Source of the DNA: Candidatus Omnitrophota bacterium
Lineage (GTDB): Bacteria; Omnitrophota; Gorgyraeia; Zapsychrales; Zapsychraceae
Assembly: GCA_020429915.1 (NCBI GenBank)
Contig: JAGQKV010000006.1
Coordinates: forward strand, 5,458-69,457
Length of the DNA: 64,000 bases
Direction: 5' to 3'
Below the pieces are notes generated by a model. That model saw only the letters and a program-made list of their open reading frames with translations. It made no database searches and was not told the DNA's origin. A program made the translations under genes and the position numbers. Shown piece by piece: positions 9,478 to 63,690 of this stretch (positions within the stretch are counted from its first letter, which is position 1; each line of letters opens with the position of its first letter).

Positions 9478-11226
9478 ATGAGAAGCAAAGACATCTCCAT
9501 CGCTTTTATTTGCAATGCCGTTTTATTGGGCCTGTTATGCGCCGATGCCCTCGGTCTCAATCTGTATCTCCGGGCTTTGTTCGTCAATTTGGCGATGTAT
9601 GTGGTCCCCGGAACGGGCTGGCTGGGCATCATGCGCCGGCATGTTTCGAGCGCGGTGTTCCTGTTGTTTTTTCAATTCGTCCTGTCCGTTGCCGCGTTGA
9701 TCGTCCTGCATTTGGGATTCCTCGCCGCGGGACACGTCCCGGACACGCACACGTTTTTAGTCGGTCTGCTGGTCCTGACAAATGCCGGTATTCTCGTCAG
9801 CCGGCCGGCAGCGGCGTTCGCCATGCTGCGTTTTGATTACTGGCGGATCGTGATTCTGGGCGTGACCCTGGTCTGCGTTTATACCTGCGTGTTTGCGGGC
9901 ATGCGCACTCTCCCCGGACAGTTGGACCTCGACGGCGAACATCAGGGAACGGCCTACGGGATCGTCCACGAGTTCCGGCCCTATCTGACCAGCGACATCA
10001 TCGCCTCGCCGTACTACTTCGCCCATCCGCCGTTAACCAATATTTTTAACGCCTACAGCACTTTGCTGTTGAACCGGACGGAAGATTACCGTTATTTTTA
10101 CGAAACCGCGAAACAGACCGAGCGCGTGCTCGGCTTGCGCCCCGGCGGACAGGAACCGGTGAGCCTTGGTCCGGAGCGGGGAAGTTTGATTTACTTCCAG
10201 GGCAGTACCTATGTCTTCCGGACGATGCGCGGCAATGACATGCTGGACCGGCCGATTTCCCGGCAAAGGGTGATGGAACATTTGGCGGCACCGGATCAAA
10301 AGAAGTTCTTCGACGATCCGCGGCCGTTTCCGGCGCGCGCTTCGAATATTTTTGCCAGCCTGTTCGTCCTGTGCGTGCTGTTTCAGTGGATCACCAAGCT
10401 GACGAATTCGCGGCTATTGGGTATCGTCGCCGGATTTGTCTATGTCTTCTCGCCGGGGATTTTCATCCGCTCCTGTTTCTCCGAGCACGTGGCCTTCACC
10501 AACGCCCTGTTGGTCGTATTGGCCTATCAGTTTTGTTTTCCCGAAGAATTCCGGGGAAAGGGACGTTGGGGCGGCCTGCTGGCCTATGTCCCGGGGCTGA
10601 TCGCCGGGCTGATCAATCAAAAAATAGTAATCATGGTCGCGCCGGTACTGGTGATGGAAGTCGTGACGTGTCTGCGGCAACGCGGGGCCGGGTCGTGGGC
10701 GGTCCGGCTTGTGAAGGCGGCGCCCATTCCCGCGGGTTTCGCGGCGGGCACGGTGCTGTTTTGGATCTACGGTCTGGCGATTGACCCGGCGGCGTTTTTT
10801 ATTTCGCATCTGCGGACACATTTTTTCGACCGTCTGCTGCATTTGAACACCATGTTCGGCGGGGATTATCCCGGCGCCGGTCTGCTCTGGTATCAGTTCA
10901 ATCACGAATTTCCGCCTTTTTTGCTGAGCGTCTTCGCTGTGTTGTATAGTTTAAAGAGCCAGCGCAACCGGACTGTCGTCTTTTTGACCGCCTGGGCCGT
11001 TTTCGGCGGAGTCCTGTTTTCCGTGGTCGACTGGAAACAAACCAATCATCTCACTCAGCTGACGATTCCGTTGTTGGCCGTGTTGATGATGTATATCGAA
11101 CAGCAGCCGCTCGCCTACAAACGGGTGTTAAAGGTTTTGGTGGGGTTGTGTCTGCTTTACGGTTTCTGGTTCGACATGCAGCTGCTGGCGGATTTTCATT
11201 TTTACAAACCGGTCAGCGGATGGTAA
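9478..11226 (+). CDS. Polytopic membrane protein, possibly a further GT-C-type glycosyltransferase
   Basis: More than 12 hydrophobic helices. A loop 'DGEHQGTAYGIVHEF' is reminiscent of GT-C first-loop motifs. No firm family assignment. Confidence 0.4.
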   Translation: MRSKDISIAFICNAVLLGLLCADALGLNLYLRALFVNLAMYVVPGTGWLGIMRRHVSSAVFLLFFQFVLSVAALIVLHLGFLAAGHVPDTHTFLVGLLVLTNAGILVSRPAAAFAMLRFDYWRIVILGVTLVCVYTCVFAGMRTLPGQLDLDGEHQGTAYGIVHEFRPYLTSDIIASPYYFAHPPLTNIFNAYSTLLLNRTEDYRYFYETAKQTERVLGLRPGGQEPVSLGPERGSLIYFQGSTYVFRTMRGNDMLDRPISRQRVMEHLAAPDQKKFFDDPRPFPARASNIFASLFVLCVLFQWITKLTNSRLLGIVAGFVYVFSPGIFIRSCFSEHVAFTNALLVVLAYQFCFPEEFRGKGRWGGLLAYVPGLIAGLINQKIVIMVAPVLVMEVVTCLRQRGAGSWAVRLVKAAPIPAGFAAGTVLFWIYGLAIDPAAFFISHLRTHFFDRLLHLNTMFGGDYPGAGLLWYQFNHEFPPFLLSVFAVLYSLKSQRNRTVVFLTAWAVFGGVLFSVVDWKQTNHLTQLTIPLLAVLMMYIEQQPLAYKRVLKVLVGLCLLYGFWFDMQLLADFHFYKPVSGW

Positions 11227-55026: not shown

Positions 55027-55599
55027 ATGCTGAATTCGAAATTTTCCCGGTTTTTTGTTTGTTTCTGCCTAGGCCTGATATTGAGCGTCCCGGCGGCATG
55101 GGGGTACCATTGCGCCGATCCCCACTTTAGCAGTAAAAAATGCCGGATCGCGCACAGCTACGCTAATTCGGACGTCATCTTCATGGGGCAATTGCTGAGC
55201 GTGGATGAGCGCCTGTCCGATTCCGGCCTGCCGGTCTTTACCAGTGAATTCTTTGTAAAGGAATCGTATCGCGGCGGGGTCACCGGTCAGATTAAGATAT
55301 TCTCGGAGGGTGGGGTCAATCCGCCCCAAAATATTGCCGGGCATTACATCGTGTTCGCGATTAAGGCAGGGACGGGGAAATACTTTTCCAATCCCTGTTC
55401 GAATTACCGGTTCGTTCCGATCGAAACGCCGTTGGTCGATACGCCCATGCAGACGCAGCTGAGGCGCATCGCCACCACAACCGATTGGTCATTTAGCGAC
55501 GAAGGTTGCGTCGCGGTTAAAACGACTTTTATTAAGCCTCACGAGAAACACACAACGCATCAAGATGCCGTATACGATACACGAAATCAAGAAGATTGA
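55027..55599 (+). CDS. Secreted hypothetical protein
   Basis: Signal peptide '[18 protein letters not shown]'. 190 aa. Its 3' end overlaps the leuS start by 35 nt. Confidence 0.45.
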
Positions 55600-58045
55600 G
55601 CAGAAGTGGCAGGAATACTGGCGCACCCACAAGGTGTTTGAGGCCTCCTCCGATACCTCCCGTGAGAAATACTATGTGCTGGAGATGTACCCGTATCCCT
55701 CCGGCAAACTGCACATGGGGCACGTCCGCAACTATACCATCGGCGACGTAATAGCCCGTTTCCGCCGCATGCAGGGCTGCAATGTCCTCTATCCGATGGG
55801 TTTCGATTCCTTCGGCTTGCCCGCCGAGAATGCCGCCATCAAGAACAACGTCCATCCGCGCGCCTGGACCGATCAACGTATGAACGACATGGTCGCCCAG
55901 ATGAAGACGCTCGGTCTCAGCTATGACTGGACGCGTTTTCTGTACAGCCACAGCGAAGAATATTACCGCTGGAACCAGTGGATCTTTATCCAAATGTTCA
56001 AGCAGGGACTGGTATACCGAAAAAAGGCCCTGGTCAACTGGGACCCGGTGGATCAGACCGTACTGGCCAATGAGCAGGTGATCGACGGAAAAGGCTGGCG
56101 TTCCGGGGCGGAGGTCGAGAAGCGCGAGATCGACCAGTGGTTTATCAAGATCACCGCTTTTACCGAGGATCTGCTCGCCGACCTGGACAAGCTCGAGAAC
56201 TGGCCGGAACGGGTCAAGACGATGCAGCGCAACTGGATCGGCAAGAGCCACGGGACCACGATCAATTTCGACGTGCTCGACGCCGGCGGCAACAAGATCG
56301 ACGAACTGCAGACATTTACTACGCGTCCGGATACGGTTTTCGGAATCGAATACGTGGTGCTGGCGCCGGAGCATCCCAAGTGCCGCGAATGGGTGAAAGG
56401 ACGCGACCACGAACAGGATGTCCTGGATTTTATCGCCAGTATGGACAAGGAGTCCCTGATCGACCGTATGGGCGAGGGCCGCGAAAAGAACGGCCGGCCG
56501 CTCGGGGTCTTTGCCAGGAATCCGGTCAACGGCAAGGTCGTGCCGTTGTGGACGGCGGACTACGTATTGATGGATTATGGGACCGGCGCCGTCATGGCCG
56601 TGCCCGCGCACGATCAGCGTGATTATCTCTTCGCCAAAAAATATAATTTGCCGATCTCGGTGGTCATCCGGCCGGAAGACGTTGCCGAGCTGAAGGCCGA
56701 GGATATGACCGCGGCGTATGTCGAGCCGGGGATCATGGTCCATTCCGAGCAGTTCGACGGCATCGGCAGCACCGAGGCGATCACCAAGATTTCGGAATGG
56801 ATGGAGGAGCAGGGGACCGGTGAACGCACGATCACTTACCGTCTCAAGGACTGGCTGATTTCGCGCCAACGTTATTGGGGAACGCCGATCCCGATTTACT
56901 ACGACAATGACGGTAATCCACATCCCGTTCCGGAGAGCGAGCTGCCCGTCAAGCTTCCCGACGACATCGAATTCGGCAAGGGCAACCCGCTGCAGACCTC
57001 GGAGAGTTTTCGGTACTACACCGATCCGGACACCGGCAAACAATACCGCCGCGAGACAGACACCATGGACACCTTCTTCGATTCGTCTTGGTACTACATC
57101 CGGTACACCGACGCGCAGAACCGCAATGAAATCTTCAGCAAGGATATGGCCAACTACTGGCTGCCGGTGGACCAGTACATCGGCGGCATCGAGCATGCCA
57201 TCCTGCACTTGCTGTATTCCCGGTTTTTTACCAAGTTCTTCAAGAGCATCGGCCTGGTCGAGACCGAAGAGCCGTTCTTCCGGCTGCTGACCCAGGGGAT
57301 GGTTCTGTTGCACGGCGAGGTGATGTCTAAGTCCAAGGGCAACGTCGTCGATCCGGATGACATCATCAAGAAGTACGGCGCCGACTCGATGCGGTTGTTT
57401 ATCCTGTTTGCCGCGCCGCCCGAAGACCAGCTGGAATGGAACGACCAGGCCATCGACGGGGCATGGAAGTTTCTCGGGCGGATCTGGAGCCTGGTCGAGA
57501 AACGCTATCAGCCGACCGACGAGTTCGTCGATCCGTCCAAGTTCGACAAGGACGACAAAGACATCTTCCGCGAGATCAACGCCGCCGTTAAAAAGGTCGG
57601 CGAGGACATTCAGAATTACAAATTCAACACCGCCATCAGCTGCCTGATGATCCTCATGAACAACCTCGACAAGTATGAAGTCGATGAGGCCAAACCGCAC
57701 AAACAGGCCCTCTTCAACCACATCGCCCAGACCGTGGTCCTGCTGCTGGTCCCGTTTGCTCCGCATATGTGCGAGGAGTTATGGGAAAAGCTCGGGCACA
57801 GCGACTGCGCGGCGCTGACGACCTGGCCGGAGTTCGACGAAAAGGCGCTCGAGTTGGATGAGGTCGAGGTCATCGTCCAGGTCAACGGCAAACTGCGCGC
57901 GCGGGTGACCGTCGCCGCCGACATCGCCGAAGACGCCCTCAAAGAAATCTGCCTGGCCCAGGAGCACGTTAAGACCTTCGTCGACGGCAAGCCCATCCGC
58001 CGCTTCATCTACGTCCCCGGCAAACTGGCGAATATCGTCGTTTAA
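55565..58045 (+). CDS. leuS: Leucine--tRNA ligase
   Basis: '[20 protein letters not shown]' (HIGH) and '[10 protein letters not shown]' (KMSKS). 826 aa. Confidence 0.97.
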
Positions 58046-58095
58046 TCCACCCTTACTATCACTCGCTTCCCCTCCCAAACAAAGCGTTGCCTAAT

Positions 58096-58113
58096 GGTAA
58101 CATTTGTGTTACC
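58096..58113 (+). promoter_or_regulatory. Perfect 7-4-7 palindrome (putative operator) overlapping the toxin start region
   Basis: GGTAACA-tttg-TGTTACC, 3-20 nt upstream of the ATG at 58116. Confidence 0.45.
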
Positions 58114-58115
58114 TT

Positions 58116-58439
58116 ATGATTAGAGTCGAGGAATATATCACCGCAGACGGAAGGAGTCCGTTTGCGGAATGGTTTGATGGTCTGAGTCCGCAGGCGGCGG
58201 CCAAGGTAAATACCTATTTAACCCGTGTCGGATATGGAAATACGTCCAGTTTCAAGCCAATAAAAGGTGCGTTGCAGGAGATCCGCATCAACTGGGGTCC
58301 CGGTTACCGGATTTATGTCGGCCGGGACGGCCGAACAGTAATTATTTTATTGGGCGGCGGGACCAAACAACGGCAGCAGAAAGATATTCAAACCGCTGCG
58401 GCCCTGTGGGATGAATATAAGAATCGTAAAAAGGGATGA
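58116..58439 (+). CDS. Type II toxin, RelE/ParE superfamily (HigB/HI1419-type addiction-module killer protein)
   Basis: 'MIRVEEYITADGRSPFAEWFDGL...IKGALQEIRINWGPGYRIYVGRDGRTVIILLGGGTKQRQQKDIQTA' fits the HI1419-like killer family. An alternative TTG start lies at 58104. Confidence 0.7.
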   Translation: MIRVEEYITADGRSPFAEWFDGLSPQAAAKVNTYLTRVGYGNTSSFKPIKGALQEIRINWGPGYRIYVGRDGRTVIILLGGGTKQRQQKDIQTAAALWDEYKNRKKG

Positions 58440-58443
58440 CCTT

Positions 58444-58761
58444 ATGGCGATCACACGGAAATTTAAGGGGACCGTTCAGGCCCGCGCCGAGCGCGATCCC
58501 GAGTTTCGCACAGCAATCCTGCGGGAGAGTATTGAGTGTATGCTCGCTGGAGATCTCAAAACGGGCAAGGCATTGCTGAGGGATTATATCAACGCGGCAG
58601 TCGGATTTGAAAAGCTGAGCAAGCTGACGAAAAAGGATCCCAAGAGCCTGATGCGCATGTTCAGCGCCACCGGCAATCCCACCGCCGCTAATTTGTTTCA
58701 GGTGATCAGGATTTTGCAGAAGAAGGAAGGTGTACGGTTTGTTGTTAGAGCGGTAGACTAA
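58444..58761 (+). CDS. Addiction-module antidote protein (HigA/HI1420-type HTH antitoxin)
   Basis: Starts 5 nt after the toxin stop. 'MAITRKFKGTVQARAERDPEFRTAILRESIECMLAGDLKTGKALLRDYINA...' matches the putative addiction-module antidote family. Confidence 0.65.
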   Translation: MAITRKFKGTVQARAERDPEFRTAILRESIECMLAGDLKTGKALLRDYINAAVGFEKLSKLTKKDPKSLMRMFSATGNPTAANLFQVIRILQKKEGVRFVVRAVD

Positions 58762-58783
58762 ACGAAGATTATATAAGAATTCC

Positions 58784-59269
58784 ATGAAAGTTTTCAAAAC
58801 CAAATTGTCCAGTCACTTACCGTTTCTTTTCCTAGATGGAATAGTATTGGGTGTACTCTGTTTTGGTGGGATCGGTAAAAGTAATTTGCCGGCAGATATT
58901 CTGATTACTTCTACTGTATTCATGGTGTTTTTGCTTGTAGGTCATGTTCTACTCTTTAGCAGACGTCTCATTATATCAGAATCGAACATTACCGAGACAA
59001 TCCTAGGAAAATGGCATCGCGGTTTAAACTGGACAGACGTAGCAAAAGTTCACAGCACTTACCTGTTGTATCCGGAGTCTGAAGGAATACTTATCTTGAA
59101 GACGAAGACAAGTTCAAGGCAAAAGGGACTCGCAATTCTTATCACATCATATCCAATTGAAGCTTTGCGAGAATTCCTGAGGCGTACACCGGAGGACGTG
59201 CCGGTCTATATCTACAAGTACCTTCAACGAAAGTTGGACAGTCAGCAAACACTTTTTTACAGTGATTAG
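58784..59269 (+). CDS. Orphan membrane protein in a low-GC islet
   Basis: 161 aa, two TM helices, about 42% GC versus ~60% for the window, AT-rich codon usage. Confidence 0.4.
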   Translation: MKVFKTKLSSHLPFLFLDGIVLGVLCFGGIGKSNLPADILITSTVFMVFLLVGHVLLFSRRLIISESNITETILGKWHRGLNWTDVAKVHSTYLLYPESEGILILKTKTSSRQKGLAILITSYPIEALREFLRRTPEDVPVYIYKYLQRKLDSQQTLFYSD

Positions 59270-59330
59270 CTACTCATAGCCTGGTCTAACACACCCCCAT
59301 CCCCACCCGTTTCCCCTCGGAACATGGAAG

Positions 59331-59678
59331 ATGTTTTCTTTATCGAAGAACGAGACCCGCTTTGTGCTGGTCGTCCTGGCCGTGATCCTTTCGGGATCGG
59401 GGCTGAACTATCTCATCAAATGTTATCCGCATTTGTTGCAGATCGTCAATCTCGTCGACAGCGAGTGGATCTATCCGTGGTATGACGTCAACACGGCCAC
59501 GGCCGACGAACTCATCCAAATCCCGTACATCGGCAATTATACCGCGCGAGCGATCATCCGGTTCCGAGAAGAGCGCGGACCGGTCACCGATCTCGAACAA
59601 CTCAAAGAAATCCCCGGTATCCGCGATGCCAATTTTCGGCGCTTTGCCCCCTACCTGCGGGTGAGGAGGCAAAAATGA
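59331..59678 (+). CDS. comEA: ComEA-family helix-hairpin-helix DNA-binding competence protein
   Basis: 'VNTATADELIQIPYIGNYTARAIIRFREERGPVTDLEQLKEIPGIRDANFRRF' is the classic ComEA HhH tandem. Confidence 0.8.
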   Translation: MFSLSKNETRFVLVVLAVILSGSGLNYLIKCYPHLLQIVNLVDSEWIYPWYDVNTATADELIQIPYIGNYTARAIIRFREERGPVTDLEQLKEIPGIRDANFRRFAPYLRVRRQK

Positions 59679-62804: not shown

Positions 62805-63452
62805 ATGATTTACTTACTCAAAGGCGATGACTACCGGGCCAAAGAAGCCAAGATCGACGCATTGAAAAAGGAAATCCTCGTCCACCCGGACGCGCCGCGC
62901 TTCGACTTCGACCACTTCAACGCCGAAAAGCTTCCCCCCGCTGAGTTAAAGAAAGCCCTCGTGGCCGTACCGGCTGTCAATCCCCGCCGTCTTGTTTTTA
63001 TCCGAAATATCCAAAAAGCCGTCGAACAGAATCAGAGGATCCTGCTGGAGTTCGCGCAGAGTGAACCGGATCATTGCGTGGTGATTGGCGATATCAGCGC
63101 TCCGTCGCAAAAGGGGTTCCTGACCAAACTTTCCAAGATCGGCCGGAAGCTTGAGTTCGATGCGGGCCGAAAGACCGTGGTGTGGGACGTAACCAACCAG
63201 ATCGAAGCCCGGAATACGAAGGAGGCGGTGCGTTTGTTATGTGTGATGATCAGCGAAGGGAATCATCCGCTGCAGATCATGGGGGGATTGGTTTGGTTTT
63301 GGGGCAGAATGAAGAACAAAGTCCCGGCGGGAAGATTTCAGCAGGGCTTGCGGGAATTGCAGGCCGCCGACTTGAATATAAAACGATCCCGGCTGGCGCC
63401 GGATCACGCGGTTCAGATTCTGGTTACGAAGCTATGCTTGTTAGCAGCTTAG
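62805..63452 (+). CDS. holA: DNA polymerase III delta subunit (short form)
   Basis: 'MIYLLKGDDYRAKEAKIDALKKEI' is a typical HolA N-terminus. Conserved lptE-holA synteny. Only 215 aa. Confidence 0.6.
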   Translation: MIYLLKGDDYRAKEAKIDALKKEILVHPDAPRFDFDHFNAEKLPPAELKKALVAVPAVNPRRLVFIRNIQKAVEQNQRILLEFAQSEPDHCVVIGDISAPSQKGFLTKLSKIGRKLEFDAGRKTVVWDVTNQIEARNTKEAVRLLCVMISEGNHPLQIMGGLVWFWGRMKNKVPAGRFQQGLRELQAADLNIKRSRLAPDHAVQILVTKLCLLAA

Positions 63453-63690
63453 CGTAGCGGGACTTGCGGCGGCCGGCCGTGTTCTTTTGCAGGATGCCTC
63501 TTTTAGCGGCCTTATCCAGCTTCTTGTACACCGTCTTCAGATTTGATTTGGCCTCATCCCCGTTTTTTTCTTCGACCGACTTGATGTAGGACTTGACCGT
63601 CTTCTTCAGATCCGTTTTGATGTCCAGATTGCGCAGATGCCGCTTGCGGTTCTTACGTAACTCTTTGACGCCTGAGTATCTTTGTGGCAC
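63424..63690 (-). CDS. rpsT: 30S ribosomal protein S20
   Basis: 88 aa, '...ELRKNRKRHLRNLDIKTDLKKTVKSYIKSVEEKNGDEA...AAKRGILQKNTAGRRKSRYAKL'. Divergent from murJ as in many bacteria. Confidence 0.9.
   Translation of the reverse strand: MPQRYSGVKELRKNRKRHLRNLDIKTDLKKTVKSYIKSVEEKNGDEAKSNLKTVYKKLDKAAKRGILQKNTAGRRKSRYAKLLTSIAS

Follow-up and report, generated by a model that had tools for sequence, protein, structure and literature searches.

The subject of this analysis is an islet of three genes (positions 58046-59330) in a 64,000-nucleotide (nt) stretch of contig JAGQKV010000006.1 from a Candidatus Omnitrophota bacterium; this whole stretch is referred to below as the window, and all its coordinates are counted within it. 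The islet lies between leuS and a comEA-like gene and carries a toxin gene, an antitoxin gene and a gene for a membrane protein of 161 amino acids (aa), all on the same strand (Table 1). An initial annotation of this DNA had the toxin preceding the antitoxin, which is indeed the order, although the gap between the toxin stop and the antitoxin ATG is 4 nt (CCTT) and not 5 nt as given there. A further 22 AT-rich nt separate the antitoxin stop from the open reading frame (ORF) of 161 aa. The spacer from leuS to the toxin ORF measures 70 nt and that from the 161-aa ORF to the comEA-like gene 61 nt. Further downstream follow comEC, a BamD/YfiO-like tetratricopeptide repeat (TPR) gene, lptE, a holA-like gene and then rpsT in convergent orientation. 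The islet was originally said to interrupt a housekeeping neighbourhood running from leuS to lptE-holA; there is a probable insertion in that neighbourhood, but its site is between leuS and comEA and not directly against lptE-holA.

Table 1. Features of the islet and of its two flanking genes, with positions in the window
Feature	Position	Strand	Assignment or remark
leuS, 826 aa	55565..58045	+	ORF; left flank of the likely insertion; GC 57.2%, GC3 0.80
Left copy of imperfect direct repeat, CACTCGCTTCCCCTC	58060..58074	+	resembles the leuS-comEA spacer of the putative empty sites
-35-like box TTGCCT	58087..58092	+	3 nt upstream of the predicted operator; same relative position in six toxin-antitoxin loci
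Palindrome GGTAACA-TTTG-TGTTACC	58096..58113	.	predicted operator; ends 2 nt before the toxin ATG
Toxin, 107 aa	58116..58439	+	HigB-type (Gp49-like, RelE/ParE superfamily); TIGR02683, Pfam Gp49
Antitoxin, 105 aa	58444..58761	+	all-helical putative DNA-binding repressor; unmodelled sister family of HI1420-type antitoxins
161-aa protein	58784..59269	+	membrane protein of two transmembrane helices; likely an orphan immunity protein directed at an Rhs glycine-zipper toxin
Right copy of imperfect direct repeat, CACCCGTTTCCCCTC	59304..59318	+	within the native spacer upstream of comEA
comEA-like gene	59331..59678	+	helix-hairpin-helix; right flank of the likely insertion; Pfam HHH_3, E 2e-17

The islet stands out by its composition. 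At 46.8% guanine plus cytosine (GC) it is the lowest 1285-nt stretch of the 64 kb (z = -3.4, with 0.2% of such stretches equally low), so that the low-GC islet first described was recovered on recalculation and the composition was not found to be uniform; the mean of the whole window, however, is 55.8% and not the background of about 60% assumed earlier. Its genes contribute unequally. The 161-aa ORF has 40.7% GC (z = -4.0), the toxin gene 50.0% and the antitoxin gene 52.5%, and the toxin-antitoxin pair taken by itself (51.2%) deviates mildly (z = -1.3; 9% of stretches equally low). GC at third codon positions (GC3) sets the islet genes apart from their neighbours more sharply than total GC does, with values of 0.52 for the toxin, 0.64 for the antitoxin and 0.42 for the 161-aa gene as against 0.68-0.80 for the neighbouring genes.

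The toxin had been described as an HI1419-like HigB toxin, and the curated models agree: it scores 91.7 bits against NCBIfam TIGR02683 (upstrm_HI1419), above the cut-off of 62.85, and 23.9 bits against Pfam Gp49 (PF05973), which is exactly the cut-off. It shares with TIGR02683 toxins this family score, the toxin-first operon, a long basic C-terminal tail and the residue set K/E/R/R/K/Q, which is proposed to make up the catalytic pocket in HigB-type toxins. The closest known toxins are HigB(TAC), or HigB1, of M. tuberculosis (PDB 7AWK, 7NBU), HigB of S. pneumoniae and HigB2 of V. cholerae. Among solved structures, HigB1, the toxin of the toxin-antitoxin-chaperone (TAC) system, is the sole sequence relative, although the similarity is weak (E 0.003, only about 20 bits) and the window locus, unlike TAC, has no SecB-like chaperone gene. 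On alignment, K47, E55, R57, R65, K84 and Q87 of the toxin correspond to K58, E66, R68, R77, K95 and Q98 of HigB(TAC), where K84 and Q87 pair with K95 and Q98 only if the beta4-alpha3 loop is shifted by one residue. HigB(TAC) loses its toxicity when K58, R68, R77 or K95 is replaced by alanine, while the effects of E66A and Q98A are partial or mild (PMC9098466). In an alignment of 12 family toxins (32-73% identity) E55, R65, K84, Q87 and D90 are invariant. The catalytic residues of the RelE fold, whose lack had been named at the outset as a reason to doubt the toxin, are intact, and the protein is a probable ribosome-dependent mRNA endonuclease, to which RNase activity can be ascribed by homology.

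The antitoxin had been called HI1420-like. Remote homology to that group holds, but membership in it does not. The protein matches no Pfam or NCBIfam model even at E <= 10, and searches of PDB sequences, with the single sequence as well as with a profile, gave no relative. Comparison by hhalign of 28 members of its family with six verified PF21716 proteins, on the other hand, gave a probability of 96.9% (E 1.5e-10, 80 columns). Relatives encoded on plasmids (39-58% identity) reach 12-16 bits against dnstrm_HI1420 in collinear alignments, below the cut-offs of 27 and 53.7. The family is best placed as a remote sister of the HI1420-type antitoxins and is not a member by any curated model. It resembles HI1420-type proteins (PF21716, TIGR02684; COG3636 'DNA-binding prophage protein') in its position after a TIGR02683 toxin, in its length and in the 80 collinear columns, which include the putative helix-turn-helix segment ...SL(Y/M)R.(L/F)S..GNP.... 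It differs from them in that the window antitoxin has an extra N-terminal helix of 15 residues and falls below both curated models, that the family carries the highly conserved signature KSLMRMFSxxGNPTAxNLF, and in the putative operator GTAAC-N6-GTTAC. An AlphaFold2 (AF2) model of the antitoxin consists of six helices, at a predicted local distance difference test (pLDDT) score of 87.

This antitoxin family is large, with at least 1421 clusters, the best 120 of which show 67-93% identity to the window protein. Named relatives are mostly from Omnitrophica and others from Planctomycetes and Nitrospinae, and their source labels read 'transcriptional regulator' or, in some from JGI, 'DNA-binding phage protein'. 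A solitary homologue (39% identity) occurs on plasmid pSYLA of Synechocystis sp. PCC 6714 (locus L106, 80263-80586), where it lies within a bacteriophage exclusion (BREX) locus that also has VapC and HEPN/nucleotidyltransferase pairs; its neighbours on either side are pglX and pglZ.

A palindrome abutting the toxin start was already part of the initial annotation. A search that tolerated two mismatches gave no second match in the window (0.07 expected by chance), and the position and core of the palindrome recur in distant relatives. The core common to the family is GTAAC-N6-GTTAC. Of 105 fetched loci, 14 have this core, one copy apiece, and all 14 are toxin-antitoxin loci; the other 91, among them 80 leuS loci, lack it. 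The copy stands just upstream of the toxin gene in 13 cases, the exception being a high-GC viral contig (L097, IMGVR_UViG_3300045968_000340), in which the core (2956-2971) is found about 30 nt upstream of an antitoxin homologue with no recognisable toxin ORF upstream of it; this homologue may be a solitary phage-borne repressor or anti-toxin. Six independent loci share one layout upstream of the toxin start, consisting of a TTGCA/TTGACA box, about 3-5 nt and an inverted repeat that ends 1-12 nt before the start codon. The extensions of the arms vary: GGTAACA / TGTTACC in the window, GTAACATA / TATGTTAC in L100, arms of 12 bp in L103 and one mismatch in L095.

Because the core is confined to toxin-antitoxin loci, with one copy in each, its occurrence lies far beyond chance and supports the view that the inverted repeat is a conserved repressor site. 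Its conserved, fixed position strongly, if indirectly, suggests that the operon is autoregulated through the repeat at its promoter. The site occupies the interval from the -35-like box to the ATG, and antitoxin bound there would therefore block the promoter. The TTGCCT box is a putative promoter element, and a consensus sigma-70 promoter scan called no promoter for the toxin-antitoxin operon, this box included. The operon mRNA would have a very short leader or be leaderless.

The same 107-aa and 105-aa pair was found at five other loci (L098, L100, L103, L095 and L107), and the contexts are telling of its mobility. In L100 the pair directly follows a tyrosine integrase gene and is the last element of a block that includes TraG and TrbI genes and looks like an integrative conjugative element, and in L098 it is part of an island with ArdA, AIPR and Mrr genes. 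The antitoxin family is present on 75 plasmid records from Proteobacteria and Cyanobacteria, including Sphingomonas plasmid p32, on which the pair stands beside ParA. Judged from these placements in a probable integrative conjugative element, on plasmids and on viral contigs, the toxin-antitoxin family is demonstrably mobile. The host genomes of the nearest homologues have 35-36% GC and their toxin-antitoxin genes 38-44% GC, which fits an import of the pair into a host of 56% GC from a donor of lower GC. In a 2.86-Mb contig (L102, 3670-4318) the toxin is broken by a frameshift and a stop and the antitoxin and the GTAAC-N6-GTTAC site are intact, which reads as decay of the toxin with the antitoxin kept. 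Taken together, we regard positions 58116-58761 with high confidence as an ordinary HigB-type type II toxin-antitoxin module, a known kind of system.

The site of the islet was compared with related genomes by an empty-site scan, in which the C-terminal 299 aa of LeuS served as query against species-representative genomes and 80 leuS loci were obtained. The nearest genomes (L009 and L010, both Omnitrophota) share 73% LeuS identity over these 299 aa. Here only 86 or 42 nt separate the leuS stop from the comEA-like gene, with no islet between, and the downstream order comEC-TPR-lptE-holA-rpsT is that of the window. As the nearest genomes have leuS directly followed by comEA, the islet is very likely an insertion downstream of leuS, as was first proposed, and the leuS-comEA spacers of these two genomes represent its empty sites. 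Atypical composition and an empty site in relatives, which together speak for horizontal acquisition, are thus both found here. Six metagenomic contigs of close relatives (~95% nucleotide identity) hold the same three-gene islet at the same place, so the insertion appears to be fixed in the lineage of the window. L009 shows, immediately behind its leuS stop, an inverted repeat of ~40 nt of its own (10898-10940; AGCACATTTCA...TGAAATGTGCT), which is absent from L010 and the window; a terminator and a small inserted element are both possible readings of it.

The two junctions carry an imperfect direct repeat. Its copies, CACTCGCTTCCCCTC and CACCCGTTTCCCCTC, match at 13 of 15 positions (p about 0.005-0.03), and both can be aligned with the spacer at the empty sites of L010 and L009 (TCACTCGGTTTCCC...); the L010 stretch aligned to each of them is TCACTCGGTTTCCCGTCGG. 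By this alignment each junction preserves pieces of the ancestral spacer. It is also possible that the repeat is a duplicated target or an att-like core, for which it is statistically weak. The mobility-protein queries, limited to four types taken from related loci, were a tyrosine integrase, a serine recombinase and two transposases of the IS200/RAYT type; none gave a tblastn match in the window, in agreement with the original remark that an integrase or transposase is lacking. There is no tRNA gene in the window. An 18-nt inverted repeat (58034-58051 / 58752-58769; 15 of 18 positions complementary) has one arm in the region of the leuS stop and the other in that of the antitoxin stop and so brackets the toxin-antitoxin cassette. 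It was considered as a pair of cassette ends and is treated as chance; by chance alone, 1.5 kb should contain about 0.4 such pairs, and in the sister lineage L001 the repeat has 11 of 18 matches by manual count.

The third gene of the islet was originally reported as an orphan membrane protein. Its two hydrophobic segments (residues ~12-30 and ~38-60) fit a membrane location, but the protein is not a true orphan. A word-indexed search gave two relatives (90% and 52% identity), and a HMMER scan of 1.84 billion representative proteins extended these to a family of 37 clusters, all about 160 aa long. The family has no match in Pfam or NCBIfam. Common to its members are MKxYK at the N-terminus, a pair of hydrophobic helices and a C-terminal domain that carries W..E(I/V), YxLxPE.G and LYPYLKRKLEGKQTWFY motifs, and the window protein keeps the near-invariant residues W83, P97 and L147 as well as the YPE..G and LQRKL motifs.

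Clues to its function come from the neighbourhoods of the relatives. Used as a locus query, a subset alignment of the family gave six short metagenome loci, and a homology search with the family profile listed at least six proteins. In L003/L004 the relative of 52% identity (P0122) overlaps with its start the stop of an Rhs-type ORF (ATGA). This upstream ORF contains an Rhs-associated core domain (TIGR03696, 82.6 bits, cut-off 32.5) followed by a tail of ~240 aa that ends in a glycine zipper, GGIIGAVGGGIGGSIY; the tail resembles Pfam Gly-zipper_Omp below the cut-off (E 0.003). In L089 and L117/L118 an ORF with the motif ...NNP(V/L)NLIDP(W/T)G... continues into a domain that is 150-250 aa long and glycine-rich at its end, and a family member overlaps the stop of this ORF. 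In L090 and L091 the end of a toxin domain is followed by a family member, an IS200/RAYT-type transposase, a toxin-domain fragment and a second family member. The toxin domains of L089, L090, L091 and L117/L118 follow the Rhs ...DPxG motif. Together with the domain of L003 they are mutually homologous (L117 and L089, 47% identity, E 5e-39; L090 and L091, E 2e-22; L003 and L090, E 8e-6), and have no match among PDB sequences and no similarity to a Pfam family. In all, family members lie immediately downstream of homologous Rhs C-terminal toxin domains in five independent metagenomic loci, their start codons either overlapping the toxin ORF or abutting it.

Two features of these loci may be added. 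In L003 a 168-aa ORF without Pfam or NCBIfam match (1762-2268) comes after the immunity-like gene and may be a second immunity or accessory gene. RAYT-type transposase genes stand between cassettes of toxin domain and immunity-like gene (L090, 979-1566; L091, 1-219; L089, 1122-1847), which suggests such transposases as a route by which these cassettes are shuffled.

No Rhs gene or remnant of a toxin domain was found within the 64-kb window, and the gene upstream of the 161-aa ORF is the antitoxin gene. Given that the family follows Rhs toxin domains elsewhere and that no such domain was found here, the window gene would be an 'orphan' immunity gene, and a role of the 161-aa protein as an orphan immunity protein against Rhs glycine-zipper toxins is in our judgement reasonably likely. 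In characterised Rhs, contact-dependent inhibition (CDI) and LXG systems the gene directly behind the C-terminus of a polymorphic toxin, overlapping its stop, is the immunity gene, and the toxin Tse5 has Tsi5 as its immunity protein.

Comparable systems act on membranes. Tse5 of P. aeruginosa is an Rhs membrane-depolarising pore-former (PMC10684867), the ionophores of E. coli CDI systems are neutralised by small membrane immunity proteins, CdiI (PMC11630599), and EsxX/ExiCD of S. aureus combines a glycine-zipper depolarising toxin with membrane immunity proteins, orphan copies of which occur in strains that lack the toxin (PMC12744356). The homologous loci are like these systems in having a glycine-zipper toxin end after an Rhs core and next to it a gene for a small membrane protein, and the window is like ExiCD in having a membrane immunity-like gene with no toxin within 64 kb. 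Unlike the known glycine-zipper systems, the toxin domain and the 161-aa protein are without similarity to solved structures or Pfam families; the sequences of Tse5, EsxX and CdiA themselves were not compared. The arrangement in L090 and L091 has the usual look of displaced Rhs cassettes, as in orphan toxin-immunity arrays, whereas the window has the immunity-like gene only, placed beside a toxin-antitoxin pair and not in an rhs locus. A membrane target for the Rhs toxin is suggested solely by its glycine-zipper motif.

The explanation that we favour, with moderate confidence, is that the islet consists of two unrelated accessory cassettes which became lodged in the 40-90-nt leuS-comEA spacer of one Omnitrophota lineage. 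The two halves probably came separately, because their GC differs (about 51% against 41%) and so do their associations elsewhere. The first cassette (58087-58761) would be the type II toxin-antitoxin operon. Its toxin, with the Gp49/HigB-type RelE fold, would enter the ribosomal A site and cut mRNA, and the helical antitoxin would bind and neutralise it. Alone or with the toxin, the antitoxin would also bind GTAAC-N6-GTTAC, block RNA polymerase and repress the operon. Were the supply of antitoxin to stop, the toxin would be set free; such modules stabilise the DNA that carries them. The second cassette (58784-59269) would be the orphan immunity gene, encoding an inner-membrane protein with two helices and a cytoplasmic domain of ~100 aa. 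The cognate Rhs glycine-zipper domains probably depolarise the membrane or form pores in it, and the 161-aa protein may protect against such toxins when neighbouring cells deliver them. A wider proposal is put forward tentatively: the 161-aa protein and its 36 sister clusters could be an immunity family not described before, whose counterpart would be a clade of Rhs membrane toxins with glycine zippers, likewise undescribed, from uncultivated bacteria. In the window lineage an orphan copy of the immunity gene would have been captured beside a toxin-antitoxin module, possibly be co-transcribed with it and be held in the chromosome by this addiction module.

Several observations weigh against parts of this account. 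The best sigma-70-like reading of the operon promoter (TTGCCT-17-TACCTT) would place the start of transcription inside the ORF. A Foldseek search with the antitoxin model returned mostly helix-turn-helix proteins of the Xre, HipB, HicB3 and Cro types, none of them significant, and the AF2 model of the 161-aa protein, made from an alignment of three sequences, was too poor for a fold search (pLDDT 59). The immunity assignment draws on gene neighbourhood in five short metagenomic contigs, and in three contexts, namely the window lineage, L092 and a solitary chromosomal copy (L115/L116), family members occur with no Rhs gene. The search for a toxin covered the 64-kb window and not the rest of the genome. 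The flanking direct repeat is, as said, statistically weak, and a recombinase that would explain the insertion was not found in the window.

The last two points, together with the fact that only two empty-site genomes are available and that these are fairly distant (73% LeuS identity), could be read to mean that there was no horizontal insertion at all, the low GC being local noise, or the region being ancestral and deleted in L009 and L010. However, the GC3 of all three islet genes is strongly off that of their neighbours, the toxin-antitoxin family is mobile elsewhere, and both junctions hold pieces of the empty-site spacer, which leaves this alternative highly improbable and the islet an insertion by the preferred reading. 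It could also be asked whether the 161-aa protein is a third component of the toxin-antitoxin module, such as an anchor, sensor or chaperone, as in the tripartite TAC system of mycobacteria. Its gene is on the same strand and begins 22 nt past the antitoxin stop with no terminator-like site between, and the three genes stay together in the six contigs of the window lineage. Yet none of 20 other loci with this toxin-antitoxin family or its relatives has a member of the 161-aa family within reach, for which reason the protein does not appear to be part of the module; the family follows Rhs toxin domains in the five loci described, and the gene differs in GC from the pair (40.7% against about 51%). 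The tripartite reading is very unlikely and was rejected.

The association with Rhs toxins can itself be understood in another way, since it is purely positional: the family might be an accessory factor for membrane insertion, export or maturation of the toxin, with some other membrane role for the window copy, and the additional 168-aa gene of L003 could be the real immunity gene. Against this, a stop-overlapping gene behind a toxin C-terminus is the immunity gene in characterised systems (PMC11630599), a membrane protein suits a membrane-acting glycine-zipper toxin, and the cassette of L091 that a RAYT gene sets apart, made up of a toxin-domain fragment and a family member, looks like a classic orphan toxin-immunity module; we consider an accessory role improbable. 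A different doubt concerns whether the gene still has a function, or is a passenger, left over from an Rhs toxin-immunity cassette that broke up, and on its way to being lost. Compared with the sister contig L001, its ratio of nonsynonymous to synonymous substitution rates (dN/dS) is 0.68, calculated from only 23 substitutions, while the housekeeping neighbours have 0.02-0.17; in L001 and L006 a premature stop has removed the last 7 codons, and no cognate toxin was found in the window. The dN/dS value fits diversifying selection and relaxed constraint or decay equally well, which also counts against a firm claim of immunity. The reading frame, however, is intact in six related contigs at ~5% nucleotide divergence, the near-invariant residues of the family are retained, and orphan immunity genes are known that are kept and useful (PMC12744356), so that a functionless passenger is unlikely, and an orphan immunity gene is the reading that we retain.

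A few observations concern other genes of the neighbourhood. The holA-like ORF (62805-63452) encodes 215 aa from its first ATG, whereas the genes in L009 and L010 encode 265 aa from a TTG start; its match to DNA_pol3_delta_C is weak (24.3 bits, cut-off 27), and its 3' end overlaps the convergent rpsT (63424-63690) by 29 nt. Upstream of the islet, an ORF of 190 aa (55027-55599) extends 35 nt into the start of leuS; its N-terminus resembles a signal sequence or that of a lipoprotein, and Pfam gave no match.

As a toxin-antitoxin system the pair is unremarkable, and every part of the islet corresponds to a known kind of system. Nevertheless the comparison brings out a large and conserved antitoxin family which lies beyond all Pfam and NCBIfam models and is annotated only as 'transcriptional regulator', and an operator consensus, GTAAC-N6-GTTAC, that can now be stated; toxin-antitoxin catalogues could add both. 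An apparent orphan gene gains a testable role, paired with a new Rhs toxin C-terminal domain, and Omnitrophota and other uncultured bacteria, in which interbacterial warfare has been little studied, supply with it a candidate toxin-immunity pair. The comparison of filled and empty sites further indicates that accessory cassettes of small size can become established between essential genes with no recombinase visible.

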